NCBI GenBank assembly: GCA_027718005.1
Contig: JALLOP010000001.1
Coordinates: 1 to 39,504, forward strand
DNA length: 39,504 nucleotides
DNA from: Patescibacteria group bacterium AH-259-L07
GTDB lineage: Bacteria; Patescibacteriota; Patescibacteriia; UBA2591; UBA6264
Reading direction: 5' to 3'
In this document: positions 2,744 to 39,145 of the stretch, one piece after another
Layout: every line of letters starts with the position of its first letter
Position numbering within the stretch: the stretch's first letter is position 1
Notes under the pieces: generated by a model
The model's database searches: none
What the model was told of the DNA's origin: nothing
The model's input: the letters and a program-made list of their open reading frames with translations, nothing else
Program-made: the position numbers and the translations under genes

Positions 2744-4051
2744 ATGGAAAAAAAGCAATATTTAAACCGAAACCTATTTGCTTATATTAAAAAGTGGATA
2801 GATAGAAAAGAAATTTTAGCTATTAAAGGCCCGCGACAAGCAGGTAAAACTACTCTTTTAAAAATGCTTGAACAGTGGTTAACACAAGAAAAAAAAGTAA
2901 ATCCAGATAACATTATATTTATCACTTTTGAAGACGATGAGATGTTAGAACAATTTACTCTTGATGCACGGGAGACGGTAAAAAGTATAATTTCAGACAA
3001 AAAAGAAACATTTTATCTTTTAATAGATGAATTTCACTACCTGGAACAAGGCGGACACATTTTGAAACTATTATACGATACATTTGATAATATTAAATTT
3101 ATCATTACCGGATCATCATCGTTAGAACTTACGGGAAAAACGGCAAAATTTTTAGTGGGAAGAGTATTTTTTCTTGATCTATGGCAATTTGATTTTGGCG
3201 AGTTTTTACAAGTTAAATCTAAACAACTCAATAATGTATACCAAGAAAAATCTAAGCAAATAAAAGCATTTATTTACGATTCTAAGCCTTTCATTTCTCC
3301 CAAAAAAGATATTTTTACTAACAATTTTGAAAAACTATTTGAACAATACGCAATATGGGGAGGATATCCAGAAGTACTAAAAACCAATGATAAAGAAACA
3401 AAAAGAACAATACTTAAAAATATTTATAATACGTATATTAAAAAAGATATTATAGAACTTTTAAAAATATCCAATACTTCAACGTTTAAAAAACTAATTA
3501 ACTTATTAGCTCTTCGGACGGGCAATCTAATTAAATATGATTCACTTATTGATGATTCTGGCAGTTATTTTGAAGAAGTTAAACAGTATCTTTCTGTTCT
3601 AGAAGAAACCTTTATAATTTCACTTATAAAACCATTTTTTACTAATAAAACGACAGAGATAAGAAAATCGCCTAAAATCTATTTTATTGACTCGGGACTA
3701 CGAAACTATATTATTAATAATTTTAATATCCCTTCTTTAAGAACAGATATCGGCGCATTGGCGGAAAATATAGTTTTTTCTCAATTAAAAAAACAGAATG
3801 ATGAATTAGAACTAAAATACTGGAGAACAAAAGGAGACGCTGAAGTAGACTTTATTATAGAAAAACCAAAAGAATTAATTCCCATAGAAGTAAAATATTC
3901 TACTTTAAAATCTACACGTGTCTCAAGAAGCTTTAAAAATTTTATATCTCAATATAAACCTCAAAGAGGAATAATCCTAACTAAAGGATTTTGGGGAGAA
4001 ACAAAAGTTGCTACAACGCTTGTAAAATTTATTCCTATTTGGTATTTGTAA
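2744..4051 (+). CDS. AAA+ ATPase of the AAA_14 / DUF4143 type
   Basis: Walker A GPRQAGKTTLLK and Walker B LLIDEFHY. The C-terminal part (YWRTKGDAEVDFII...IPIEVKY) resembles the nuclease-fold DUF4143 region. Confidence 0.75.
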   Translation: MEKKQYLNRNLFAYIKKWIDRKEILAIKGPRQAGKTTLLKMLEQWLTQEKKVNPDNIIFITFEDDEMLEQFTLDARETVKSIISDKKETFYLLIDEFHYLEQGGHILKLLYDTFDNIKFIITGSSSLELTGKTAKFLVGRVFFLDLWQFDFGEFLQVKSKQLNNVYQEKSKQIKAFIYDSKPFISPKKDIFTNNFEKLFEQYAIWGGYPEVLKTNDKETKRTILKNIYNTYIKKDIIELLKISNTSTFKKLINLLALRTGNLIKYDSLIDDSGSYFEEVKQYLSVLEETFIISLIKPFFTNKTTEIRKSPKIYFIDSGLRNYIINNFNIPSLRTDIGALAENIVFSQLKKQNDELELKYWRTKGDAEVDFIIEKPKELIPIEVKYSTLKSTRVSRSFKNFISQYKPQRGIILTKGFWGETKVATTLVKFIPIWYL

Positions 4052-4105
4052 TAAAGCCTACGGATAAGCGGTATTGACTTTTCTAAGTATTTTACCAAAA
4101 ATAGT

Positions 4106-4131
4106 AAAATCCGACTTTGAGTCGGGTTTTT
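4106..4131 (+). terminator. Rho-independent terminator after the ATPase gene
   Basis: AAAATCCGAC-TTTGA-GTCGGGTTTT hairpin followed by a T-run. Confidence 0.6.
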
Positions 4132-4142
4132 GTAATAAAAAA

Positions 4143-4210
4143 GAGGTTCGACCTTTTAGAGTTGAAATACAAGACCCGACCTTTTGATAAAAAATGCAAG
4201 GTCGGGTCTT
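4143..4210. repeat. Second locus of the CGACCTTTT...AAATGCAAGGTCGG hairpin repeat (one partial unit plus a complete 13-bp hairpin at 4171-4210)
   Basis: AAGACCCGACCTT...AAGGTCGGGTCTT, homologous to 1766-1805. Confidence 0.85.
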
Positions 4211-4257
4211 TATATAAAAGGAATCTTAAGCATGTGGATAAGTAGGGTTGACAGTCA

Positions 4258-4349
4258 ACTGTTGCGAGGGCAAGGCTCGAAGCAATCCCAAATCAAAGAA
4301 TAGATTGCTTCGCTCCTTTCAGTCGCTCGCAATGACACTTCGTGTCATT
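4258..4349. repeat. GC-rich element, family 1 (CTGTTGCGAGG...GAAGCAATC...GATTGC...CGCTCGCAATGACAC-loop-GTGTCATT)
   Basis: Collinear with 6565-6650. Shares CGCTCCTTTCAGTCGCTCG with 35476-35494. Internal 9-bp and 8-bp hairpins. Confidence 0.85.
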
Positions 4350-4453
4350 TTCAGATTCCTCAATTATAAAAAGTATTTAGGAATAGCAGACTTAAAAATA
4401 AAAAATATCTAATCCTTTTCTGGTTAGATATTTTTATAAACTAATTTAAGTAT

Positions 4454-4780
4454 TTAAATTATTCTTATTCCTGTCCTCTTAATTTCAGAAACTAAAGGAT
4501 CATCGCCAACAAAATCCTTTGGATGAAAACCAACAGGGGCAATCATATTTCTAGCATCATGGTCGGTTCTTCTAACCCATAAGTATTCCAGTGGGTCAAT
4601 TCTGCCTTTAAATTTAGGCGAAATAATACAAATATCAATATCGCTCCATTTGTGAGAACTGCCCTTAGTATGAGAGCCGAAAAGTATTACCTGTTTTATA
4701 GGTAATTTATCTTTTTTAAGTTCATCAATATAATCTTTGATCTTTTTTTCTATTTGTTTGTTAACTCTTTTTTTAGCCAT
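4454..4780 (-). CDS. Nucleotidyltransferase-domain protein (MNT-type, putative antitoxin partner of HEPN)
   Basis: LFGSHTKGSSHKWSDIDICII matches the GS-x-G...D-x-D polymerase-beta-type NTase motif. It overlaps the upstream HEPN gene by 31 nt. Confidence 0.8.
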   Translation of the reverse strand: MAKKRVNKQIEKKIKDYIDELKKDKLPIKQVILFGSHTKGSSHKWSDIDICIISPKFKGRIDPLEYLWVRRTDHDARNMIAPVGFHPKDFVGDDPLVSEIKRTGIRII

Positions 4781-5154
4781 AGAATTAAATCATGAGTAAT
4801 TTTTAAATATTCCTCAGCATATTTTTTTGTAACTTTTTTATAAAATGCATATCTGAGAGTATCATATCGTGCTCGCATATTAAAAGTAGTAATAATTTCC
4901 AAATACTTTTTTCTCTCAGCACTAACTTCAATGCCAGTTTTTAAAATCAAACTGTAAAGGTCGTGGGTGAAAGGTGCTTGATTCCCGGTTCTGGAAACAA
5001 CCAATGCCTTAATTAATCTTTCTAGGGTTAAATGGCAAAAAAATAAAGAATAGTTATAATGTTTTAAATCAAGAAGACTTTGAGCAACCTGCCAGTCCTT
5101 TTTAGCGTTATCTTGCCAATAATCAACAAATTTTTTAATCTTTGTTTTATCCAT
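4750..5154 (-). CDS. HEPN-domain protein
   Basis: AQSLLDLKHYNYSLFFCHLTLERLIKALV...PFTHDLYSL is a typical HEPN helix pattern. It is paired with the NTase gene. Confidence 0.7.
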   Translation of the reverse strand: MDKTKIKKFVDYWQDNAKKDWQVAQSLLDLKHYNYSLFFCHLTLERLIKALVVSRTGNQAPFTHDLYSLILKTGIEVSAERKKYLEIITTFNMRARYDTLRYAFYKKVTKKYAEEYLKITHDLILWLKKELTNK

Positions 5155-5165
5155 TTTCTTAATTT

Positions 5166-6170
5166 TTATTCTTGTTCTTTGATTGCTTGAAGGATTTTGT
5201 TTTTAAGATCTGTGGTGATTTTAGGATTTTCTTTTAAATAATTTTTAGCATTTTCCCAGCCAACGCCAAGCTTTTCTTTGTCATAGTATAACGTGTTGCC
5301 TTTTTTCGCAACTAAATTATATTTTGCGCCTAAATTAAGCAAATCACCTGTATATGAAATTCCTTCGTTATACATAATCTCAAACTCGCATATTTTAAAT
5401 GGCGGTGCTACTTTATTTTTTACTACTTTTGCCTTTACCCGATTGCCTATTACTTCATCGCCTTTTTTAATTTGAGCTAAACGGCGCAGTTCAATTCTTA
5501 CTGATGAATAAAATTTTAAAGCTAAACCGCCCGTCGTAGTTTGAGGTGAGCCGAAATATACGCCGATTTTCATGCGGATTTGATTAATAAAAATAACTGA
5601 AGTTTTAGATTTGCTAACAATAGCGGTTAATTTTCTTAATCCTTGACTCATTAAACGGGCTTGAAGACCAATATGCTGGTCTCCCATCTCGCCTTCTATT
5701 TCTCTTTTAGGAGTTAATGCTGCTACAGAATCTATCACAATCACATCTATCCCATTTGAGCGAACCAATGTTTCAACAATCTCTAAGGCCTGCTCTCCTG
5801 TATCTGGCTGAGAGATTAACAAATCATTTACCTTTACGCCAATACGCTTTGCATATTCTGGATCTAAGGCATGCTCGGCATCAACAAAAGCGGCTATACC
5901 GCCTTTTTTTTGTGCTTCAGCTATGATATGAAGCGCTAATGTACTTTTTCCAGTCATCTCAAGTCCGAAAATTTCTATAACCCGGCCGCGGGGAATGCCG
6001 CCAACACCCAATGCTAAATCCAAGGAAAGACAGCCGGTTGGGATCACATCCACTTTCATTTTTTTTGCCTCTCCCAGCTTCATAATAGCCCCTTCGCCAA
6101 ACCGGGACTGCAACTGTTCAACTGCAGATTCTGCAGCTTTAACACGATCAGATTTTTGCTCTTTAGCCAT
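5166..6170 (-). CDS. recA: Recombinase RecA
   Basis: [45 protein letters not shown]. Confidence 0.97.
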
Positions 6171-6180
6171 AAATTTTTAA

Positions 6181-6963
6181 TTACTCTTCTAATACGACCT
6201 GGCGATATATGGTTCGCATACGCGAGTATTTTTTCTTGGCTGAAATCTCAATGGTATTTAAACCAGGCAATAACGCCACAACTTGTTTAAAACCCCCATA
6301 AGCATCAGCAGTGCCAATTAATTGATTATTTATAAAAACTTCTATATGAGGTTTTGTTGTGCCTTGTACGACAATGCTGGACTTTGAAGCTATAAATTCA
6401 TCTGGCGGATGTATGATCTCAATTAATGGCGGTGCTATCGCTGTTTTAATATTAACACCAATATATAATAAGATCAAGACAAGAATTACCAGTACTATAA
6501 TATTTTTAGAATAAACTAACTTTAAAGGGATGCGGGATGACAAGTGGGTGTGAGATTGCGGAGCCTGTTGCGAGGCCGTAGGCCGAAGCAATCTTAAAAC
6601 AGAGGAGAGATTGCCACGTCGCTCGCTCCTCTCGCTCCTCGCAATGACAAAAGAGGGTCGACGGCCTCCTCGCAATGACAAGGGGGGACGGGATGACAAA
6701 GGAGTGCTATATTCTTGTTCCCATTGATTTACAATACTTTGCGCATCTAATTCTAACGCCTCTGCATAGCGTTTGAGAATCCCGCGCGTATACGTTGCGC
6801 TGGGAAATTTATAAAAATCATCTGCTTCTAAATATTCTAAATATTTTTTAACAATGCTCGTGCTTTGTTCTACATCTTTAAGACTCAATCCCTTATCCTC
6901 ACGCGTTTGTTGTAACACATGCCCTAAGGTATCTGATCTCACTTGTTTTGAAGTAAAAGTCAT
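6181..6963 (-). CDS. RodZ-like helix-turn-helix membrane protein
   Basis: N-terminal HTH (LSLKDVEQSTSIVKKYLEYLE), one TM segment and a C-terminal beta-rich domain. The linker is encoded by a GC-rich repeat. Confidence 0.6.
   Translation of the reverse strand: MTFTSKQVRSDTLGHVLQQTREDKGLSLKDVEQSTSIVKKYLEYLEADDFYKFPSATYTRGILKRYAEALELDAQSIVNQWEQEYSTPLSSRPPLSLRGGRRPSFVIARSERSERRGNLSSVLRLLRPTASQQAPQSHTHLSSRIPLKLVYSKNIIVLVILVLILLYIGVNIKTAIAPPLIEIIHPPDEFIASKSSIVVQGTTKPHIEVFINNQLIGTADAYGGFKQVVALLPGLNTIEISAKKKYSRMRTIYRQVVLEE
6565..6690. repeat. GC-rich element, family 1, embedded in frame in the RodZ-like CDS
   Basis: CTGTTGCGAGGCCGTAGGCCGAAGCAATC...CTCGCAATGACAAGGGGGGACGGGATGACAAA is homologous to 4258-4349 and to the tail of 35466-35558. 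It is translated as ...RSERSERRGNLSSVLRLLRPTASQQ... Confidence 0.85.
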
Positions 6964-6974
6964 TTTTTTAAAAC

Positions 6975-7100
6975 CCTAAACTCTAAACCCTAAACTCTAA
7001 TCAAATCCAAAATCCTAAACTCAAAATTCAAAACGGTTTAGATATTCGAATTTTGATATTAGATATTGTTTAGGATTTCGAAATTAGAATTTAGGATTTC
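6975..7100. repeat. CTAAAC-type heptamer array (CCTAAAC TCTAAAC CCTAAAC TCTAATC...) facing an inverted, degenerate GTTTAG-type arm
   Basis: Read directly. It fills the ftsK-stop to RodZ-like-start spacer. Confidence 0.85.
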
Positions 7101-9278
7101 TCATCCTTCTTCTTCTGAAGAAGGCTGAGTGTATACTTCTCGTGGTTTTGATCCTTCAGCCGGCCCAATAGTTCCCTCTTCTTCTAATAAATCTAGGAGT
7201 CGCGCGGCCCTGGCATAGCCAATACGCAGTCGCCGCTGTAAATATGATGCCGATGCTTTCCCCGCGGCAACTACTGTCTCGCGCGCCTCATCTAAAAATT
7301 CATCTTTTTTTAAATCGCCAAAATGGGAATGTATATCATCTGGCTGTGATTCCGTAACTTCTTCTTCATACAAAGGTTTCGCAATATTTTTTAAATACTC
7401 AACTACTTTTTTAATCTCGATATCAGAAACATACGGGCCCTGCAAACGCCGTGGTTTTGAAATCTCAGGCGAGACAAATAGCATATCTCCCCGTCCTAAT
7501 AACCGTTCTGCACCAGCAAAATCTAAAATGGTTCGTGAATCAACTGCAGAAGCCACTGAAAACGCAACGCGCGTGGTAATATTTGCCTTAATTAATCCCG
7601 TAATAATGTCAACAGATGGACGCTGGGTTGCCATCACTAAATGGATTCCTGTTGCACGTGCCATCTGCGCTAAACGAATAATACAGGTTTCCACCTCATG
7701 TGGTGCGGTAACCATTAAATCCGCCAACTCATCTATAATAACAATAATATAAGGAAGTCTATTATTAGAAAACGCACTATTATACGTATCAATGTTTCGT
7801 TTTTTTGCATCGTGCATTATGTCAAACCGACGCTCCATTTCACCAATAGTCCATTTCAGGGCATTGATTGTCTTATCAACATCCGTAATAACTGGGGTTA
7901 ATAAATGCGGCAGTTCATCATATAACGTAAGCTCAACGCGTTTCGGATCAATTAAAATAAAACGCAAATCTTCAGGCGCATTTTGATAAATTAAACTTAC
8001 AATAACTGAATTTAAAAATATGGTTTTTCCTGATCCTGTACTACCTGCTACGAGCATATGCGGCATATTAGATAAATCTGCCAACCAAATTCTTCCTGCA
8101 ACATCACGGCCGAGTGATATAGTTAAATTTGATTTTCGTTTTTTAAATGTATCGCTCGCTAATATTTCTTTTAAGCGTATCACGGCAACGCGGACATTCG
8201 GTACTTCAATCCCTACCATAGATCGGCCAGGAATTGGCGCTTCGATGCGTATCGGATGTGCTGCTAATGCCATTGATAGATCGTTGTGCAGTGTGGTAAT
8301 TTTAGATAATTTTATCCCCTCTGCCGGTTTTAATGTATATTGTGTTACCGTAGGGCCTACCTTAATTTCCCCCATCTCTACGGGAATGTTAAAATTTTCT
8401 AATGTACGCTTAATAATTAATTTACTCGCCTTAATATCTCCTGCGCTTGGTTTTGAACTTGTACTATCTAATAAATGCAGCGGCATATCAGTTTTTTGAT
8501 ATGATGTTGCCGCCGTAATTGGAATTATTGGTTTTTGTTTTGATGGAGAGAATAAAGCTCCTTCATCTTCTGGTTTTTTTTCAAGTAATTTTGCTGTTTC
8601 TGGTTCTGTTTCACTTGTTAACTTTTGTTTTTTAAACACTATTTTTACTTTTTCAAAAATACGATGTATTAAACTTTGTTTTACTACTACCCGTTCTTCT
8701 TTTTTTGGTTTTTTCTTTATCATACCTGAAAGCGCAACAAGCAATCCAATAATAAAAGCGGCAGTAAATACAATCCAACTTGCCCAAAACCCAAACGTTT
8801 TCACCATCACATAACTAATACCATAACCAATATATCCACCGCCTTTAAATTCGTTTAATGCAGTTGGATTATTAATAAATGCGACATGAAGTGCTGAAGA
8901 TAGAATAACTGCTAAGAGTATGAGGCAAAAAAAACGAGTAATAAATGAAGGCGGCCGTTTTAGGCGAAGTATGCTTTGATCTTGGATCGTATCATACTTA
9001 ATACTAATAAACGCTAAAATTAAAAATATTACCGGAATAAACCAGCTCACCCAGCCAAATAATATTTGAAGTCCGAGTGCAAAAAACTCACCTGCGACAC
9101 CGGCAAGTCCAAAAAGACTTAACAATAAAATTACTGACAGGGCTATCAAAATAATGGATATAACTTGGCGCTGAAATTCACTCATTTTTTCAAATCCTTG
9201 CTTTTGCCGCCTTTTTCTATTCTTTTTTGTTTTACGTTTTTTTAAAAGCTTTGTTGATTTTTTTTGTCTTTTTTTCAT
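7101..9278 (-). CDS. ftsK: DNA translocase FtsK/SpoIIIE
   Basis: N-terminal TM segments, the motor (MLVAGSTGSGKT, IIVIIDELADL, ATQRPS) and a C-terminal gamma wHTH (ASASYLQRRLRIGYARAARL). Confidence 0.95.
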   Translation of the reverse strand: MKKRQKKSTKLLKKRKTKKNRKRRQKQGFEKMSEFQRQVISIILIALSVILLLSLFGLAGVAGEFFALGLQILFGWVSWFIPVIFLILAFISIKYDTIQDQSILRLKRPPSFITRFFCLILLAVILSSALHVAFINNPTALNEFKGGGYIGYGISYVMVKTFGFWASWIVFTAAFIIGLLVALSGMIKKKPKKEERVVVKQSLIHRIFEKVKIVFKKQKLTSETEPETAKLLEKKPEDEGALFSPSKQKPIIPITAATSYQKTDMPLHLLDSTSSKPSAGDIKASKLIIKRTLENFNIPVEMGEIKVGPTVTQYTLKPAEGIKLSKITTLHNDLSMALAAHPIRIEAPIPGRSMVGIEVPNVRVAVIRLKEILASDTFKKRKSNLTISLGRDVAGRIWLADLSNMPHMLVAGSTGSGKTIFLNSVIVSLIYQNAPEDLRFILIDPKRVELTLYDELPHLLTPVITDVDKTINALKWTIGEMERRFDIMHDAKKRNIDTYNSAFSNNRLPYIIVIIDELADLMVTAPHEVETCIIRLAQMARATGIHLVMATQRPSVDIITGLIKANITTRVAFSVASAVDSRTILDFAGAERLLGRGDMLFVSPEISKPRRLQGPYVSDIEIKKVVEYLKNIAKPLYEEEVTESQPDDIHSHFGDLKKDEFLDEARETVVAAGKASASYLQRRLRIGYARAARLLDLLEEEGTIGPAEGSKPREVYTQPSSEEEG

Positions 9279-16789: not shown

Positions 16790-17046
16790 TCTATAAGGGA
16801 TTTTTTAATTCAATTTTGTCTCTAAATAATATTCAAGGGGACAAAATTAATGTATTATACCCCTAATAAAAGGGGCAAATTTATTATCGTCTCGGAATTT
16901 AAATAAATTAAATTCCGACAGCTCTTTATCTTTTCAGATAAAGAGCTGGACCAGATAGGAGAATAAACCGAGACGACCCAGCCCTTTTAAAAAGGGCTGC
17001 TCGTTAGAGAGATAGGGACGAACTAAGTGAGTCCCTATCTGGGATT
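16790..17046 (-). promoter_or_regulatory. Long structured 5' leader of rpoB (multiple perfect hairpins)
   Basis: Minus-strand hairpins: AGATAGGGAC/GTCCCTATCT, CAGCCCTT/AAGGGCTG, CAGCTCTTTATC/GATAAAGAGCTG and GGAATTTAA/TTAAATTCC. The last two are enclosed by CGTCTC/GAGACG. Confidence 0.5.
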
Positions 17047-17053
17047 GTATCTT

Positions 17054-17082
17054 ATAATAGCATATTAATTTTGTTTTGTCAA
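17054..17082 (-). promoter_or_regulatory. Near-consensus promoter TTGACA-N17-(TGC)TATTAT driving the rpoB leader
   Basis: -35 at 17077-17082 and -10 at 17054-17059 on the minus strand, with an extended TG. Confidence 0.55.
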
Positions 17083-17153
17083 GTATGATTTTTCCCCTTA
17101 ATTAAGCCAAAAAATAAGTTATCCACAGGTTTTACACATGCTCAAAAAATTAT

Positions 17154-18484
<1,331 letters not shown>

Positions 18485-18488
<4 letters not shown>

Positions 18489-18694
18489 ATCTCACCTTTT
18501 TCAACATCAACTTCTAAAATATCAGCAATTTGAGCATCAAAAATACAAAAATCTGCGCCAGAGTCTATAAGCGCAGCATATCGCAATTCCTTCCCGTCGG
18601 CATTGATTTTAATAGGAGTAATTGGTTTAAGAAGTGATAATCCGAAATATTCCGATCTCTGCGGAAGAAGTAATTTAAGGTAGGGAAATTTCAT
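18485..18694 (-). pseudogene. Truncated paralogue of the retropepsin-like aspartic protease (69 aa, ends just after the DSGAD region)
   Basis: ALIDSGADFCIFDAQIADILEVDVEKG aligns with residues of the 134-aa protein at 21603..22007. The stop overlaps the murE ATG (ATGA). Confidence 0.55.
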
Positions 18695-18894
18695 AACAAA
18701 GAAAAACCACCAACATAAGGAATAATTTTTGTTGGCACGCGAAAGAGGATCGGATCTTTATAACCTTTCATTTTAGCTTTTTCTATTACTTCTTTTACTG
18801 TTTTGCCGCTTGCTACAACTGTCTTTTCATCGCTTTTTAAACCAATCCATAAACCTTTATATTTTTTACAAATTTCAGTCCAATCAATTGCCAT
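18691..18894 (-). CDS. Small DUF5678-like protein, copy B
   Basis: MAIDWTEICKKYKGLWIGL...KTVVASGKT..EVIEKAK.KGY. I count 43 of 65 positions identical to copy A by hand. ATGA overlap with the downstream protease fragment. Confidence 0.6.
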   Translation of the reverse strand: MAIDWTEICKKYKGLWIGLKSDEKTVVASGKTVKEVIEKAKMKGYKDPILFRVPTKIIPYVGGFSLL

Positions 18895-18942
18895 AGTAAC
18901 ATTTTACCATAAAAAAATTTTTTGTAAATACCTACTTGTTTA

Positions 18943-20433
18943 CTACTTTGCTTTTTTAATAACTTTTACTATTCCCTTCTCCGCATCCACTTCCACGAAA
19001 TCACCGTCTTTTAAAACCTTGGTGACTTTAGCCACGCCCACTAAACAAGGGATTCTAAATTCGCGAGAAACAATGGCAGCATGAGAAGCAATACCCCCCT
19101 GTTCGGTGATAATCGCACCAGCTTTCTTCATGGCTATAATCATCTGTGGGTTAGTAGAAAAAGAAACTAAAATATCACCCTTCTCAAGCTTTTCCAGATG
19201 ACCAACACCTATCACTATCTTAACCGTACCAGTAACCTTGCCTACACAAGCGACGTTTCCTTTAAGTTGTTTAACTTGTTCCACTTCTTCTCCTTTTATC
19301 TCTAAGAAGACCCTTATCTTTTTTGCCCCCTCTCCCACGTAAACAGATTCTTGATTATTATCTATATAATAAACGCATAATTTCTTTCTTCTAAAATAAA
19401 GTTCTCTAATTTCATCTTTTTTATATTCATGGGGTAAAATATATTTAAAAAATTTAAGAGGAAGGTGCCATCTTTTGGCTAGTTCTTTTTGGATCAACTC
19501 ACAGGCATAAAATCCATGAAAAAGCACTTCTTTACGATACTGCTTATAATAAGTTTGATCTCTGATAATAAAAAATCTCTTTCTTAATAATTTACTAAAA
19601 CCTAACTCCTTTTCCATTCTATCCTGTTCTTTTTTGATCTTTTCCAGTTCATTCTTTTTTTCTAAATACATTTTTCTCAATCTTTTTATATCATTTTTTA
19701 TAAGCAACTGCTTTAACTCTTTTTGAAAGTAATTAAAATCTAAGGCAGGCCCAACATATCCGAAATTAATCCAACAATATTGTTTCTGATGTTTCTCTAT
19801 CCATTTTCTAGTTTTGGTAGAATTTAATCTCAAATTTTCTTTTAATATTTTCATGGCTATCCTTAATAAATCCAGCCTTTCCTCTGTCAGATATAATGAC
19901 CTAATTGGGCTGGATAATAATCCAAAGATCTGTACTGATGTCTGATCTATTTTTTTATTTTTGAGTTTATTCTTAATCTCTTGTATTAATCCTTTGGCAA
20001 TATAATTATTAGAACCATATTCTGTTAAAGGCGCAAGTTGACCCCATTTATTAAGATTTAACATCTGTTTATTAATTTGCTTAAAATAATCAACAAGCTT
20101 ATCTTCTCTAACCTTAAAAATATCTTTGTCTTCAATCAATTTAGCGATACGGATAACTTCCTTGGCGTATTTATCTGTATACCTATTCATCTTTTTATAA
20201 AACTTATCATTGAAAAATAGATTGTAAATCTTTTTGCCAAATTTATGAAAATCTTCTTGGCTCGCAAAAAATTCTACCCCTTTCTCAGAAAAAATTAACA
20301 TTATAGGATTCAAATTCTTCCTAAAGAAAGGTCTAATCTTTGTCCCCCACGACTTAGCAAATATATAAAAAGGAAACAAATTAGCTTGTCTCTCTTGAGT
20401 AACAAATTCCCACTTTATTTTTTTATGAGACAT
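18943..20433 (-). CDS. Protein with C-terminal PEP-utilising-enzyme mobile (swivel phosphohistidine) domain and an uncharacterised 400-aa N-terminal region
   Basis: The C-terminus (ILVSFSTNPQMIIAMKKAGAIITEQGGIASHAAIVSREFRIPCLVG) is the classic swivel-His motif. Confidence 0.8.
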   Translation of the reverse strand: MSHKKIKWEFVTQERQANLFPFYIFAKSWGTKIRPFFRKNLNPIMLIFSEKGVEFFASQEDFHKFGKKIYNLFFNDKFYKKMNRYTDKYAKEVIRIAKLIEDKDIFKVREDKLVDYFKQINKQMLNLNKWGQLAPLTEYGSNNYIAKGLIQEIKNKLKNKKIDQTSVQIFGLLSSPIRSLYLTEERLDLLRIAMKILKENLRLNSTKTRKWIEKHQKQYCWINFGYVGPALDFNYFQKELKQLLIKNDIKRLRKMYLEKKNELEKIKKEQDRMEKELGFSKLLRKRFFIIRDQTYYKQYRKEVLFHGFYACELIQKELAKRWHLPLKFFKYILPHEYKKDEIRELYFRRKKLCVYYIDNNQESVYVGEGAKKIRVFLEIKGEEVEQVKQLKGNVACVGKVTGTVKIVIGVGHLEKLEKGDILVSFSTNPQMIIAMKKAGAIITEQGGIASHAAIVSREFRIPCLVGVAKVTKVLKDGDFVEVDAEKGIVKVIKKAK

Positions 20434-20550
20434 AATAATGCTTATAAATTAATCGTATTAAAGCGGCTAAACTATTTCTTGATAATTTTAACTACTCCCT
20501 TATTTGCCCACACATCAGAATAAATTCGGTGCGGAGTAAATGATATAAAA

Positions 20551-21495
20551 CTACAATGTGGTGATAGGCCTGCTCTGAACAACGTAAAATCTTCCACTGT
20601 CTAAACACCACTCAATGTCCTGCGGAACCTTGTAATGCTCCTCTATTTTCTGACATAACTTGGCCAGTTTCAATATTTGTTGATTGGTAAGTTTTTGTTT
20701 TTCCTGTTTTGATTGAGGAACTTTTGCCCGTTTCACTCCTCTTCTTAAACATTGTGTAATCATCATATTTTGCTCAGATATATTAATATCTAATAAACAC
20801 CAATCTTTCTTATGTATTATATAGGTATCAGGCGTGATTTCTCCTCCCACAATCGCCTCTCCTAAACCATAACCTGCCTCAATAACCATTTGATCTCTGT
20901 CCTCAGTCACCGGATGAACGGTAAAACAAATACCTGATATTTCAGATTGAATCATTGCCTGTACCACCACGGCAACCGATACTGCTTGCTTATGCAAACC
21001 TTTTTCAAACCGATAAAAAATAGCCCGCGGCGTAAACAACGATGACCAGCATTTTTTAACTGATTCAAGTAAATTTTTTTGAGTCACATTAAGATAGGTC
21101 TCTAGTTCCCCCGCCCATGACGCAATAGAAGAATCCTCAGCTGTTGCTGAGGAGCGCACTGCCACATACTTTGCTTTTAATTCTGTAAATCCGTTTAAAA
21201 TTTCTTTGCCTAATTGTTCTGGAAATTCTGCATCGTAAATTAGATCTCTAATTTTTTTTGATGCCTGCTCTACTGATTTAATATCTTTATGGTTTACCTT
21301 ATGCATTGCCGCTTCAATCTCAACCCCTAAATCTGTTTTATCTAAAAATCGATCAAATGCTGGCGCTAGTACCACAAACCCTGGCGGCACCGGAATTTTT
21401 GTTTGTGTCATCTCTCCCAACGAAGCTCCTTTACCGCCCGCAATAGCAACATCATTTTTAGATAATTGTTTAAATGATTTTATAAACTCACTCAT
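20551..21495 (-). CDS. PPDK_N-type ATP-grasp (pyruvate phosphate dikinase / PEP synthase N-terminal nucleotide-binding domain) stand-alone protein
   Basis: VAIAGGKGASLGEM...IPVPPGFVV...VAVRSSATAEDS...SWAGE...DIEW...VQSRPIT. Confidence 0.85.
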   Translation of the reverse strand: MSEFIKSFKQLSKNDVAIAGGKGASLGEMTQTKIPVPPGFVVLAPAFDRFLDKTDLGVEIEAAMHKVNHKDIKSVEQASKKIRDLIYDAEFPEQLGKEILNGFTELKAKYVAVRSSATAEDSSIASWAGELETYLNVTQKNLLESVKKCWSSLFTPRAIFYRFEKGLHKQAVSVAVVVQAMIQSEISGICFTVHPVTEDRDQMVIEAGYGLGEAIVGGEITPDTYIIHKKDWCLLDINISEQNMMITQCLRRGVKRAKVPQSKQEKQKLTNQQILKLAKLCQKIEEHYKVPQDIEWCLDSGRFYVVQSRPITTL

Positions 21496-21565
21496 ATTTC
21501 TAACTTACTTCTTTTTAATCATTTTCCCATATCTCTCACTTTCATGAGTGACAAAATTTATAAAT

Positions 21566-21588
21566 ATGTCCCTTTCTATAGGGACATT
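21566..21588 (-). terminator. Hairpin ATGTCCCT-TTCTAT-AGGGACAT downstream of the protease gene
   Basis: 8-bp perfect stem followed by an A/T-rich tract on the minus strand. Confidence 0.4.
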
Positions 21589-21602
21589 ATTGAGATGGTT
21601 TT

Positions 21603-22007
21603 TTATTTATTTTTATTTCGTAGCTTTAAATCTACCTCTTCTTTAAGCAAATCAAATTTTACCACAAAAATATCAAAAAATCCTTTTTGTCCAACAATGC
21701 CATAACCGAATTTACCTATTTTCCTTAAAAATGCGGCCTTAACCTTAAACCGCCAACTGCCGACTTCAATTTCTAAATCATGAAAATAAATAGGCTCATT
21801 AGCGCCAGTAACTCCTGCAACTTCTCCTTTTTTGCCTTTTTCAACATCAATCTCTAAAATATCAGCAATTTCAGCATCAAAAACACAGAAATCCGCTCCT
21901 GAATCAACTAATATTTCATAGGGAACGGATATATTATTGTAAATAACCTTGATAGGAATAACTGGTCTTAAAATGCGAGTACTATATTTTTTATACGGAA
22001 ACTTCAT
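21603..22007 (-). CDS. Retropepsin-like (clan AA) aspartic protease
   Basis: 134 aa with ILVDSGADFCVFD (D-S/T-G-A active-site signature) and a size typical of single-lobe retropepsin-like proteases. Confidence 0.7.
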   Translation of the reverse strand: MKFPYKKYSTRILRPVIPIKVIYNNISVPYEILVDSGADFCVFDAEIADILEIDVEKGKKGEVAGVTGANEPIYFHDLEIEVGSWRFKVKAAFLRKIGKFGYGIVGQKGFFDIFVVKFDLLKEEVDLKLRNKNK

Positions 22008-22013
22008 AATATC

Positions 22014-22211
22014 TCACAGTCCAAAGCCAACATACGGAATTAAACGTTCCGGCATTTTTGTTAAAATAGGCATTTTATAACCCTTTTTCTGCGCTTTCTC
22101 CCATGCTTCTTTAGCAGTCTTCCCAGAGGATACAACTGTTTTTTCATCATCTTCTAATGCGACCCAGAGGCCTTTATACTTTTTATAAATTTTAGTCCAA
22201 TCAATTGCCAT
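22014..22211 (-). CDS. Small DUF5678-like protein, copy A
   Basis: MAIDWTKIYKKYKGLWVALEDDEKTVVSSGKTAKEAWEKAQKKGY, immediately upstream of the protease. Confidence 0.6.
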   Translation of the reverse strand: MAIDWTKIYKKYKGLWVALEDDEKTVVSSGKTAKEAWEKAQKKGYKMPILTKMPERLIPYVGFGL

Positions 22212-22243
22212 AATTTTTATTAATTACCAATATCGTTAATTAT

Positions 22244-22272
22244 ATTTTACGATTTTGTCAAAATATTGTCAA
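22244..22272 (-). promoter_or_regulatory. Promoter TTGACA-N17-TAAAAT upstream of the DUF5678-like/protease module
   Basis: -35 at 22267-22272 and -10 at 22244-22249 on the minus strand. Confidence 0.4.
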
Positions 22273-22423
22273 GTATATATTTAATGATTTCAATTGCTTA
22301 TAAGCGTATATTAACTGTGTTTAATATATTGTCAGTAATATAATTAAAAACTAGATTATTTCTTATTGGTAATACGCTTCGCAATCCCTCGCCCTTTTTA
22401 CAAACGGTGAGGGACGATTTCTT

Positions 22424-24148
22424 TTACACTACCTCATCTTGATAACACTTCTCACAATAGACAATTTCTTTTCGCTCTGGTGCATACGTAGTTTCGAATT
22501 CATTCGGACAATGATCTTGTTTATGAAAATGTTCTACGGTATTTTTGTAAATACTATTATCTGATTTTTCTCCTGCGCATTGGCATTTTCGATGCCAGAT
22601 CTGCTTTGGCGTACGCTTATTAAACCGTTCTCGGTGACGACATTCAAAATCTTTGCGCGGTAAAGGCAAATGCATTTTTTGATAAAATGAAAATTCAAAA
22701 GGAGTAAGCTTATAATTTCTCTTACAATCCTTACAAACCAATATGTCTTTTAAAACTCCTTTATCTGCTTCCTCAATAGTATCAGGCATTTTATCTAATG
22801 GAATGGTCTCTTTGCCACGCGTTCTCATTTCTTTATCCTGCCACTGGAATCCTTTTTGCAAAGTCTTATCCCGCGAAAGTGGAAAATAATCTTGTGCAAG
22901 CGTCTCGTTATAGCCAAAAAGGGAGAGGGATGGTGGGAAAAATAAACCATAAACGCCTTCTTCTTTCATCGAAGTAATAATTTGATCCTTTGTTTTATTA
23001 TATTCTTCTTTAGAATACTGTTTATTTAAAATAGAATAGCTTCCTTTTTTAAGCCCGATACAACCGAAACAATCAGAGCACGTATGACAATTATCACAAT
23101 ACTCGACATCATTACAGATAAAAATATGAGATGAGTATTTACATCTATTAATCTGAAGCGCACTCATAACCTCTAAACAACGCTCTGGTTTATAATAGAT
23201 ATTGTTGCCATCCCAACAATCAATAGGATCCTCGGCATCAGCAAGATACGCACACTCCTTGGCATTGCTTACATCAAAAATCATATATGCGTCATGGCAG
23301 TTATATAGATAGTCACCAACAGCCCTTACACATTTTGTTTGAAACGCATATTTAACTAACGTCCTTGAAGTAAACTCGCTCAAATGTTTTTTTGTCTCCT
23401 CAATACTTTTATACGAAGCAAGAATTTCTTGTTTCTTTTTCTCATATTCTTCCTTACTATACTGCTTATTTTCAATACAGTATGATCTATGCCGAAGGTT
23501 GGTGCAAAGTATTAAATGGTGTGAATCACGAACATCAAAACAAAAAAGCAAATCAGTGCTTGCCTGACATCGTTCACTAAAAAGGCAGTTATAACATTTT
23601 CGACAATCAACACATTCGTAACAAAGCTCTGAATCATATATCCATGAAGAGTCTACTACTGACCTGCAATTTTGAATAAGCCGACTATAATAACAATCCT
23701 CATTTTGCTCTGCAGCAAAAATAAGATAGCAATTCTTATTATCTGCACTCATATTAGCATACTCAGAATTAACATGCCTCATATTTACCAATGCCATCCG
23801 CGGAACCTTTTCTTGTAATGCCTTAAACTGCTCAAAAAATGACTTATCAGGATTATATGTCATACCATAGTTTTTCGCGTCCCAATTATCACTCCACCAA
23901 CATGTTACACAATACACAGGAAATAATGTGCCTGATGGATACACGGCTATAATAGTTTTATTACACCGATCGCAGGTACGTTGATATAATGTGCGCTCGT
24001 TTCTGTGCGCCAACCGCCATTGCATCCTGCATTGCCAGCATTGTGTTGGTGCAGGTGCACTGACTTTTTCATAAAAATCAAAATCCTCCGGTTCAATCGT
24101 GAACTTTTGTTTACAGTTTTGACAAATTTTTGTTTGTGACTCATTCAT
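22424..24148 (-). CDS. Cysteine-rich multi-zinc-ribbon protein of unknown function
   Basis: Dozens of CxxC pairs. N- and C-terminal modules share C-x2-C-K-x2-[FY]-x-[IL]-x-P-x-[DE]-F-x-F-Y-x-K. The ATG at 24148 (MNESQ) is preferred over the upstream TTG. Confidence 0.75.
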   Translation of the reverse strand: MNESQTKICQNCKQKFTIEPEDFDFYEKVSAPAPTQCWQCRMQWRLAHRNERTLYQRTCDRCNKTIIAVYPSGTLFPVYCVTCWWSDNWDAKNYGMTYNPDKSFFEQFKALQEKVPRMALVNMRHVNSEYANMSADNKNCYLIFAAEQNEDCYYSRLIQNCRSVVDSSWIYDSELCYECVDCRKCYNCLFSERCQASTDLLFCFDVRDSHHLILCTNLRHRSYCIENKQYSKEEYEKKKQEILASYKSIEETKKHLSEFTSRTLVKYAFQTKCVRAVGDYLYNCHDAYMIFDVSNAKECAYLADAEDPIDCWDGNNIYYKPERCLEVMSALQINRCKYSSHIFICNDVEYCDNCHTCSDCFGCIGLKKGSYSILNKQYSKEEYNKTKDQIITSMKEEGVYGLFFPPSLSLFGYNETLAQDYFPLSRDKTLQKGFQWQDKEMRTRGKETIPLDKMPDTIEEADKGVLKDILVCKDCKRNYKLTPFEFSFYQKMHLPLPRKDFECRHRERFNKRTPKQIWHRKCQCAGEKSDNSIYKNTVEHFHKQDHCPNEFETTYAPERKEIVYCEKCYQDEVV

Positions 24149-24156
24149 AGTTTTTA

Positions 24157-24218
24157 AAGTTTGGATACATATATTACTCCTTACAAACTTCAAGGTTCTG
24201 ACGAAGTCAGGTTCTTAT
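24157..24218. repeat. Conserved 34-nt hairpin (AAGTTTG-20 nt-CAAACTT) fused to a family 2 repeat (TTCAAGGTTCTGACGAAGTCAGGTTCTTAT)
   Basis: The hairpin shares its stems, and 14 of 20 loop positions, with 33956-33989. The family 2 part matches 40-88. Confidence 0.8.
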
Positions 24219-24248
24219 CAGCCCAAGGCTGACCCGCCTAAATTTAAA

Positions 24249-24320
24249 TGTCCCCAGAGGGACTCGAACCCACATTTCAGGCTCCGGAAGCCCGCGCTCT
24301 ATCCATTGAGCTATGGGGAC
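24249..24320 (-). tRNA. tRNA-Arg (anticodon CCG)
   Basis: Manual cloverleaf: acceptor GTCCCCA/TGGGGAC, D arm GCTC/GAGC, anticodon loop TTCCGGA, T loop TTCGAGT (one U-U in the T stem). No CCA is encoded. Confidence 0.85.
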
Positions 24321-24324
24321 AAAT

Positions 24325-24349
24325 ATGTGCAAAGCCCGGCTTTGCACAT
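24325..24349 (-). terminator. Hairpin ATGTGCAAAGC-CCG-GCTTTGCACAT between scpB and the tRNA
   Basis: 11-bp perfect stem. Confidence 0.55.
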
Positions 24350-24359
24350 TTGCTGATCG

Positions 24360-24893
24360 CTAATCATTATCTTCGCTAATAAGTGAAGATAAGGGGATAT
24401 CGCGTTTTAAGCGGTCATAATCAGGGAGTTCTTTAATATCCACAATACCGAGCTGGCGGATAAAATCCAAACTCACATTATATATCTGCTTATCTTTATC
24501 AGCCTTAATAATTAATCCTTTAATGAGTAAATTCCGTAAAATAATAGAGCAATTTACCCCGCGGATCTGCTCCAACTCATCTCTTATAATCGGCCCCCGA
24601 TACGCAATAATTGATAACGTTTCTAATGATGCAGGGGTTAATTCTCCGGTAATTTCAGTCTTTAAAAATTTTGAAACTGCCTCGCTATTTTGAGGCGCCG
24701 TTACCATTTGATACTCATTGCTGTTTTGAATAATTTTAATACCCCCTCCCCTGCTATTATATTCATTAATCAATGATTCAAGCGCCTCACCAATTTTTTC
24801 AACAGATTCATTTGCAAGAGCTGCCATTTCTTTTTTTTCTAATGGCCGATGCGCAATAAACAGTAAGCTCTCAATTGTTGATATAAGTGTCAT
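24360..24893 (-). CDS. scpB: Segregation and condensation protein B
   Basis: IESLLFIA..PL........ plus tandem wHTH (LETLSIIAYRGPIIRDELEQIRGV). Confidence 0.9.
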   Translation of the reverse strand: MTLISTIESLLFIAHRPLEKKEMAALANESVEKIGEALESLINEYNSRGGGIKIIQNSNEYQMVTAPQNSEAVSKFLKTEITGELTPASLETLSIIAYRGPIIRDELEQIRGVNCSIILRNLLIKGLIIKADKDKQIYNVSLDFIRQLGIVDIKELPDYDRLKRDIPLSSLISEDND

Positions 24894-39046: not shown

Positions 39047-39063
39047 ACAAAAGCTTCGCTTTT

Positions 39064-39145
39064 AGTAACTAGTAACTAGTAACTCGTAACTGGTAATTTT
39101 ATTTTAATTTTCTTTTTATTACTGGTTACTGATTACTGGTTACTT
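39064..39145. repeat. Inverted pair of GTAAC-type heptamer arrays (5 units at 39064-39098; 4 inverted units at 39118-39145) around an AT-rich 19-nt spacer
   Basis: AGTAACT x3 CGTAACT GGTAATT ... ATTACTG GTTACTG ATTACTG GTTACTT. Lies between the rpsH stop and the rplF start. Confidence 0.9.

Follow-up and report, generated by a model that had tools for sequence, protein, structure and literature searches.

The DNA considered here, which we call the window, comes from Patescibacteria group bacterium AH-259-L07 (recognised by an exact protein match) and is a contig of 39,504 bp. Its minus strand carries, in this order, a tRNA-Arg(CCG), a cysteine-rich open reading frame (ORF), a small gene of the family DUF5678 (DUF5678-A), a gene for a retropepsin-like aspartic protease (protease A), a PPDK_N gene, a gene for a protein with a phosphoenolpyruvate (PEP)-utilizers swivel domain, a second DUF5678 gene (DUF5678-B), the remnant of a second protease gene (protease B), murE and rpoB. 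Our subject is the combination of small gene and protease gene, which occurs twice, as module A and as module B. A preliminary description had taken the two modules for a duplicated and decaying unit of toxin-antitoxin-like organisation that brackets a phosphotransferase gene pair and may belong to a genomic island. The four reading frames on which it was built, encoding 65 and 134 amino acids in module A and 67 and 69 in module B, are confirmed on the minus strand with their coordinates.

Module A begins with DUF5678-A (22014..22211). Its product of 65 amino acids has an isoelectric point (pI) of 9.5 and matches the Pfam profile PF18929 with 43.1 bits (E = 3.6e-11), the gathering cut-off being 23.2 bits; we propose it as a neutralising, antitoxin-like partner. 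The proposed effector, protease A (21603..22007), comprises 134 amino acids, displays the active-site motif DSGA and scores 32.1 bits against Asp_protease_2 (E = 1.9e-7; cut-off 24.3 bits). Upstream of the pair lies a promoter-like site (TTGACA, 17 nucleotides (nt), TAAAAT; 22244..22272) that agrees with the consensus in 11 of 12 positions. A hairpin 3' of the protease gene, read from the sequence (ATGTCCCT ... AGGGACAT, then a T-rich tail; 21566..21587), is a possible terminator; the terminator scan did not flag it.

Module B is decayed, as had been stated. DUF5678-B (18691..18894) is intact: its 67 amino acids match PF18929 with 36.9 bits (E = 3.2e-9) and retain 20 of the 20 positions that are invariant in the family. 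Protease B (18485..18694), in contrast, ends at residue 69, and its stop codon TGA overlaps the ATG of murE as ATGA. The remnant retains the DSGA motif and was identified as an ORF that aligns to residues 1-59 of protease A (34 of 68 positions identical, E = 4e-22) and then stops; because it is truncated, it reaches only 17.4 bits against Asp_protease_2 and stays below the cut-off. About 72 C-terminal residues are missing. In terms of the model of protease A, the cut at the equivalent of residue 59 removes everything from the element E59-64 on, i.e., 6 of the 12 strands and one helix. The promoter-like site of module B (TTTACA, 16 nt, TG-TAAAAT with an extended -10 element; 18901..18928; 10 of 12 positions) probably now reads into murE.

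The small proteins are identical at 43 of 62 aligned residues (E = 4e-31), and the first 18 nt of their genes are the same. The two modules are also direct repeats with a similarity far beyond chance (74% nucleotide identity over 139 nt, 87% over 71 nt); the spacing is, however, 3317-3340 nt from start to start and not about 3.1 kb as given before. What is not supported is that one module is a recent copy of the other. The small proteins of A and B share 69% of their residues, the proteases 50%, and both modules have much closer relatives elsewhere: the small protein of A has relatives at 92% identity and its protease at 75%, while DUF5678-B has relatives of its own at 80-88%. Protease B further contains a 9-residue N-terminal insertion that is common to a distinct sub-lineage, and the same insertion recurs in the full-length protease (about 141 amino acids, called as 147) that accompanies a B-type relative in another genome (L181). 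Judged by these sequence relationships, A and B are members of two diverged sub-lineages that sit 3.3 kb apart, and there was no recent duplication within this genome. Module B is then a second, independently diverged cassette, and a deletion ending at the ribosome-binding site of murE removed the 3' half of its protease gene and left DUF5678-B an orphan.

Two families in near-obligate association

The small protein belongs to DUF5678 not only here. All 70 diverse relatives submitted to a Pfam search match the family too, and a P-Y-V-G tail at the C-terminus is conserved. DUF5678-A has 602 relatives, the best 120 of them at 75-92% identity, and a search of 1.84 billion representatives yielded, at 50% identity, 758 clusters of DUF5678 proteins. 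Among the 150 best representatives there are only small proteins (47-169 amino acids) without a fused protease; where a longer one matches the profile in full, the domain forms its C-terminal end. One apparent Rosetta-stone fusion (P0265) was considered and discarded, for it is a deletion product in which the small gene is joined to the C-terminus of the protease. The DUF5678 profile finds no solved relative among the PDB sequences, its only hits there being repeat artefacts from designed toroid proteins.

On the side of the protease, the sequence D35-S36-G37-A38-D39 is invariant among 25 proteases of the family, and a C-terminal GxxGQxGFFD motif is conserved as well. The AlphaFold model of protease A is confident, with a predicted local distance difference test score (pLDDT) of 82, and AlphaFold and Foldseek agree on a full single-domain retropepsin fold. 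Foldseek gives a probability of 1.0 for the similarity with the proteases of the human, simian and feline immunodeficiency viruses, of xenotropic murine leukaemia virus-related virus and of Ddi1. The best full-length structural match is the Rickettsia protease APRc (5c9f; TM-score 0.69, 130 aligned columns, 20% identity). NCBIfam holds no model for the small protein or the protease: neither protease A nor protease B matches any of its profiles, including whatever clan-AA models there may be among them, at E ≤ 0.1. The preliminary description had tied its idea to a genuine DUF5678 protein and to a complete catalytic fold, and both are thus what was found.

Whether the two families belong together was assessed by two censuses. 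The one anchored on the small protein covered 80 loci from different species-level genomes, 76 of them with enough downstream sequence; the other, anchored on the protease, covered 80 metagenome loci, of which 69 have an intact protease and room upstream. The small gene is intact in all 80 loci of the first census and is directly followed by an intact protease gene in 67 of the 76. Conversely, an intact small gene precedes the intact protease in 69 of 69 cases. The co-occurrence that had been expected in other genomes is, in short, near-obligate. The two genes overlap by 4 bp in 86 of 126 unique pairs; in the others, their distance ranges from a few nucleotides to some tens. With junctions that range from -16 to +48 nt, a frameshift fusion of the Gag-Pro kind could be dismissed. 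How far one partner has diverged correlates with the divergence of the other (r = 0.50). Small gene and protease gene thus form a coupled two-gene unit, and for module A we propose translational coupling.

The association extends to remote relatives. In three loci (L170, L178, L179) small proteins of only some 35-45% identity are each followed by a protease of the DSG(A/S) type. A divergent pair is also found at the end of a 22.9-kb IMG/VR contig labelled as viral (L169, 4741-5372); it adjoins ORFs of no recognised function and itself has no match among the PHROG families. Locus L014 contains, besides an A-type cassette and an oppositely oriented HigB-like/XRE pair, another pair of a DUF5678-like protein and a DTGA retropepsin, which is highly divergent (4001-4590, 4721-5387 and 6774-7362). 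The two-gene cassette is widespread in Patescibacteria and constitutes a large family. A variant of 97 amino acids with a C-terminal extension (L180, 829-1122) occurs without a protease; it lies amid ribbon-helix-helix and RelB/ParE toxin-antitoxin genes.

Apart from each other, the two genes have no constant company. The 144 immediate neighbour genes of the genome set match 155 Pfam families, none of them more than three times, and a conserved third gene was not found among them. Among the closest relatives of module A there are copies that follow a cluster of ribosomal-protein genes, that separate an Asp/Asn-tRNA synthetase gene from scpA, or that adjoin an AbiEii pair. Other copies are part of a glycosyltransferase cluster or have Zeta/MazG, DUF433/DUF5615, Fic/MazE, a methyltransferase or a HigB/XRE pair as neighbours. 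In several loci, then, genes of classical toxin-antitoxin or restriction-modification systems are close to the cassette. The distribution is patchy and transfer-like, with small proteins of 75-92% identity in distant lineages of the candidate phyla radiation (CPR).

The cassette also appears to bring its own start signals. A promoter scan over 4.2 kb, based on consensus match only, gave its best match at module A, about 33 nt upstream of the ATG of the small gene, and the two best minus-strand sites that precede a gene start are those directly upstream of DUF5678-A and DUF5678-B. In module B the -10 hexamer ends 6 nt before the ATG. This is no peculiarity: in 19 of 30 loci with strong promoter-like sites, module B included, it ends 3-10 nt before the start codon of the small gene, a spacing that suggests leaderless transcripts in module B and these related loci. 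An element containing TGACAATAT is found twice upstream of module A (22260-22284 and 22323-22347, 63 nt apart), where it overlaps the promoter-like site and could be an operator; an upstream operator conserved across loci was not identified. As far as such signals can be read from DNA, the cassette is self-contained, with promoter-like sites of its own.

Decay in one direction

The censuses also show in which way the cassette falls apart. In 9 of 76 loci the small gene is intact and the protease broken or absent; the opposite case, an intact protease that lacks an intact small gene, was seen in 0 of 69 (Fisher p = 0.0033). The damage is of various kinds. In the window's module B and in L048 the 3' part of the protease gene was deleted; in L069 an internal deletion spared the final 15 codons of the protease gene, which now follow the small gene directly; L032 retains a protease remnant of 18 codons; and in P0265 the small gene is fused to the protease C-terminus. 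These events are independent and differ in nature. Where the small gene is damaged too (L134, L135, L142), the protease is also broken. This is the pattern to be expected if the protease is harmful in the absence of its partner. Loci next to the gene of glycyl-tRNA synthetase had been considered as orthologous examples of an occupied and a decayed site; they are not, since the synthetase gene lies on opposite sides of the module.

Possible modes of action

The toxin-antitoxin-like organisation suggested in the preliminary description is borne out by the pairing, the 4-bp overlaps, the unrelated contexts and the one-way decay; it is not borne out by the small protein, in which no known antitoxin family was detected. 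We tentatively read the cassette in this sense, and rate it at slightly less than an even chance that the protease is a harmful effector and the DUF5678 protein its neutraliser. The small protein would appear ahead of the protease and keep pace with it, bind it and hold it inactive, and it might also repress its own operon. By analogy with other retropepsins, the protease is presumably active as a homodimer, and a trigger is presumed as well. The unit could then work as an addiction module or as a defence of the abortive-infection type. That it represents a new class of such systems, a free-standing retropepsin-type toxin held by a dedicated small inhibitor and spreading horizontally through Patescibacteria, is possible, although we think it less likely than not.

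The resemblance to type II toxin-antitoxin systems such as HigBA and RelBE is manifold: two small co-directional genes, the smaller one upstream, a 4-bp overlap and a promoter-like site of their own; variable sites, patchy and transfer-like spread and, in some loci, classical toxin-antitoxin pairs next door; and orphan upstream genes that outnumber orphan downstream genes. The differences are no less evident. The putative toxin is an aspartic protease of retropepsin fold, which we believe to be unprecedented: we know of no toxin of this fold in any toxin-antitoxin system, and a literature search found none. Antitoxins are typically acidic and evolve faster than their toxins. The small protein here, in contrast, is basic (median pI 9.6 versus 7.7 for the protease) and better conserved than the putative toxin (mean pairwise identity 0.61 versus 0.54); Pfam assigns it to DUF5678 only, and no known antitoxin or DNA-binding domain was detected in it. 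Its AlphaFold model, with a pLDDT of 51, is unusable. Next to the cassette one mostly finds housekeeping genes and not defence islands, and searches of annotated plasmid and phage collections found no relatives. Finally, the proteases of L036, L092 and L117 are broken by frameshifts, some of which are possibly assembly errors. All this speaks against a toxin-antitoxin function.

The main rival dispenses with killing and addiction altogether. The protease might be a non-toxic accessory enzyme for a conditional task, e.g., protein processing or quality control, and the DUF5678 protein its obligate adaptor, activator, folding partner or dedicated substrate. Such an arrangement would readily account for a small protein that is basic, more conserved than the protease and devoid of a recognisable antitoxin fold, for strict co-occurrence with correlated divergence and for neighbours that are mainly housekeeping genes. 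What it leaves unexplained is the direction of decay: loss of either partner should be tolerated equally well, yet only the protease is given up, with an intact and conserved small gene left behind. A core function would also hardly fit the patchy, transfer-like spread and the presence of two diverged copies side by side, as in the window and in L014. We therefore regard the accessory protease as unlikely, though worth serious consideration. Its partner could, alternatively, be a repressor. In a switch of the ImmA/ImmR kind, a basic, DNA-binding small protein would be cleaved by the protease upon a signal and its targets derepressed. The charge of the small protein, the promoter-like sites that abut or overlap the start of the small gene, the repeated element upstream of module A and the parallel of a protease coupled to a small partner are in line with this idea. 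ImmA, however, is a metalloprotease, and ImmR has a helix-turn-helix (HTH) domain; here, neither a metalloprotease nor an HTH or any other DNA-binding family was found, there are no conserved neighbours that could be regulated as cargo, and no conserved operator was identified. The likeness thus comes down to a two-gene unit of protease and small basic partner at varied sites, and a switch of this kind is improbable.

A different type of explanation concerns only the origin of the arrangement: a recent tandem duplication in this genome, flanking the phosphotransferase pair, with everything contained in an island integrated at tRNA-Arg. Its premises are partly correct. The modules are direct repeats; the tRNA-Arg(CCG) does stand beside the block (24248-24321, minus strand), its 3' end facing it; and between 17 and 24 kb the GC content drops slightly. 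That low-GC stretch, however, takes in the core gene murE, at which the block directly ends, and no tRNA-derived direct repeat of the att kind exists in 16800-24400, nor is there an integrase family among the main ORFs of the block. The notion of an island at tRNA-Arg is thus not sustained. The remark on the tRNA is partly rescued by other genomes: 12 of 21 tRNA genes in 160 loci (L009-L168) lie within 300 nt of the cassette, where 3.1 would be expected (P ~ 1e-5). They are of many identities, mostly downstream of the protease and co-oriented, which may reflect an insertion preference. The phosphotransferase pair is indeed enclosed by the modules in the window. Elsewhere, just 1 of 177 other loci has it beside a module; it is no conserved neighbour, and "bracketing" is not supported. 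In that single locus (L092, 112-390) it is the 3' end of a PEP-utilizers gene that precedes the closest relative of DUF5678-A (about 94% identical by count), a point in favour of the scenario. Since A and B are each far closer to relatives elsewhere, the duplication is largely refuted, and the scenario as a whole is very improbable.

Among catalogued systems, PADLOC's phage-defence candidate PDC-M08 comes closest to the cassette, as far as weak and partial profile matches can tell. Its B model is matched by 23 of 25 family proteases (best E = 2.7e-6), the protease of the window spanning profile positions 10-85 of 127; 12 of the 25 also match PDC-M52B. To judge from its A/B model names, PDC-M08 apparently comprises at least two genes. 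PDC-M08A provides the only PADLOC match of the small proteins below E = 0.01 (E = 0.0011). It is touched weakly by 2 of about 80 of them, the match of P0355 spanning the N-terminal motif only, and the window's own small proteins have no match in PADLOC. A literature search found no paper describing PDC-M08.

The structural relatives are no closer in context. Rickettsia APRc, likewise a single retropepsin domain with the active site D-S/T-G-A, is a membrane-embedded protein of a single gene, is not known to have a dedicated small partner, and is implicated in autotransporter processing; the protein here is a stand-alone domain of 134 amino acids. The retroviral and retroelement proteases and the RVP domain of Ddi1 have the same fold and the same catalytic motif, while the cassette lacks any Gag, reverse transcriptase or ubiquitin-like context. 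Literature searches on DUF5678, on retropepsins of the Asp_protease_2 type and on PDC-M08 produced nothing on a pairing of small protein and protease, which apparently is undescribed there.

Prokaryotes commonly possess free-standing retropepsin-like proteases, almost none of which has, to our knowledge, been assigned a function. One large sub-family, it now turns out, always comes with a specific small partner and bears in genomes the marks of a two-gene module of selfish or defensive nature. If the toxin-antitoxin-like reading is correct, the aspartic proteases would join the effector types of toxin-antitoxin and defence systems, and a natural proteinaceous inhibitor of the retropepsin fold would be at hand. 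Many stand-alone prokaryotic retropepsins would obtain a first cellular role, and the Patescibacteria, whose genomes are reduced and in which few such systems are recognised, a candidate mechanism against stress or phages.

Neighbouring genes

The tRNA-Arg(CCG) (24321-24248) is the only Rfam match in the searched region of the window. Between it and module A lies the cysteine-rich ORF of 589 amino acids (24193-22424), which has no Pfam or NCBIfam family. It shows an internal repeat with a spacing of 444 nt and a weak PHROG match (phrog_15341, 2e-5). Paralogues of it flank cassettes in two other loci, in arrays of two to three (L010 2-1636, 2212-3969 and 4708-6492; L166 1167-2777 and 3432-5111).

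The two genes between the modules are context and not part of the cassette; both were assigned by Pfam and NCBIfam. The PPDK_N gene (20551-21495; 314 amino acids, E = 2e-102) and the gene of the swivel-His protein (18943-20433; 496 amino acids, C-terminal PEP-utilizers swivel domain with E = 1e-24) look, by their domains, like a split PEP-utilising phosphotransferase of the rifampicin-phosphotransferase or PigC type. A PEP/pyruvate-binding TIM-barrel domain was detected in neither protein by Pfam or NCBIfam.

The murE gene (17154-18488) adjoins module B. Its product matches the NCBIfam model TIGR01085 only from profile position 67 on, without the usual N-terminal domain, and one might suspect that the deletion in protease B had cut murE as well. 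This could be ruled out: the MurE of another CPR genome (L062, 5304-6683) has an equally short N-terminus. For this reason the protein looks complete, and murE here appears to be a natural short form.

The murE coding sequence holds three tandem arrays of heptanucleotides (17522-17556, 17760-17796 and 17844-17881) with 5.0-5.4 copies each, two of them perfect; the whole window contains just one other array of this kind (39063-39096). Because a change by one unit shifts the reading frame, the arrays could be a contingency locus; they could equally be an artefact of assembly or amplification. Across the stop codon of murE extends a perfect 14-nt inverted repeat (TGCTCAAAAAATTA / TAATTTTTTGAGCA; 17139-17168), which may serve as a terminator.

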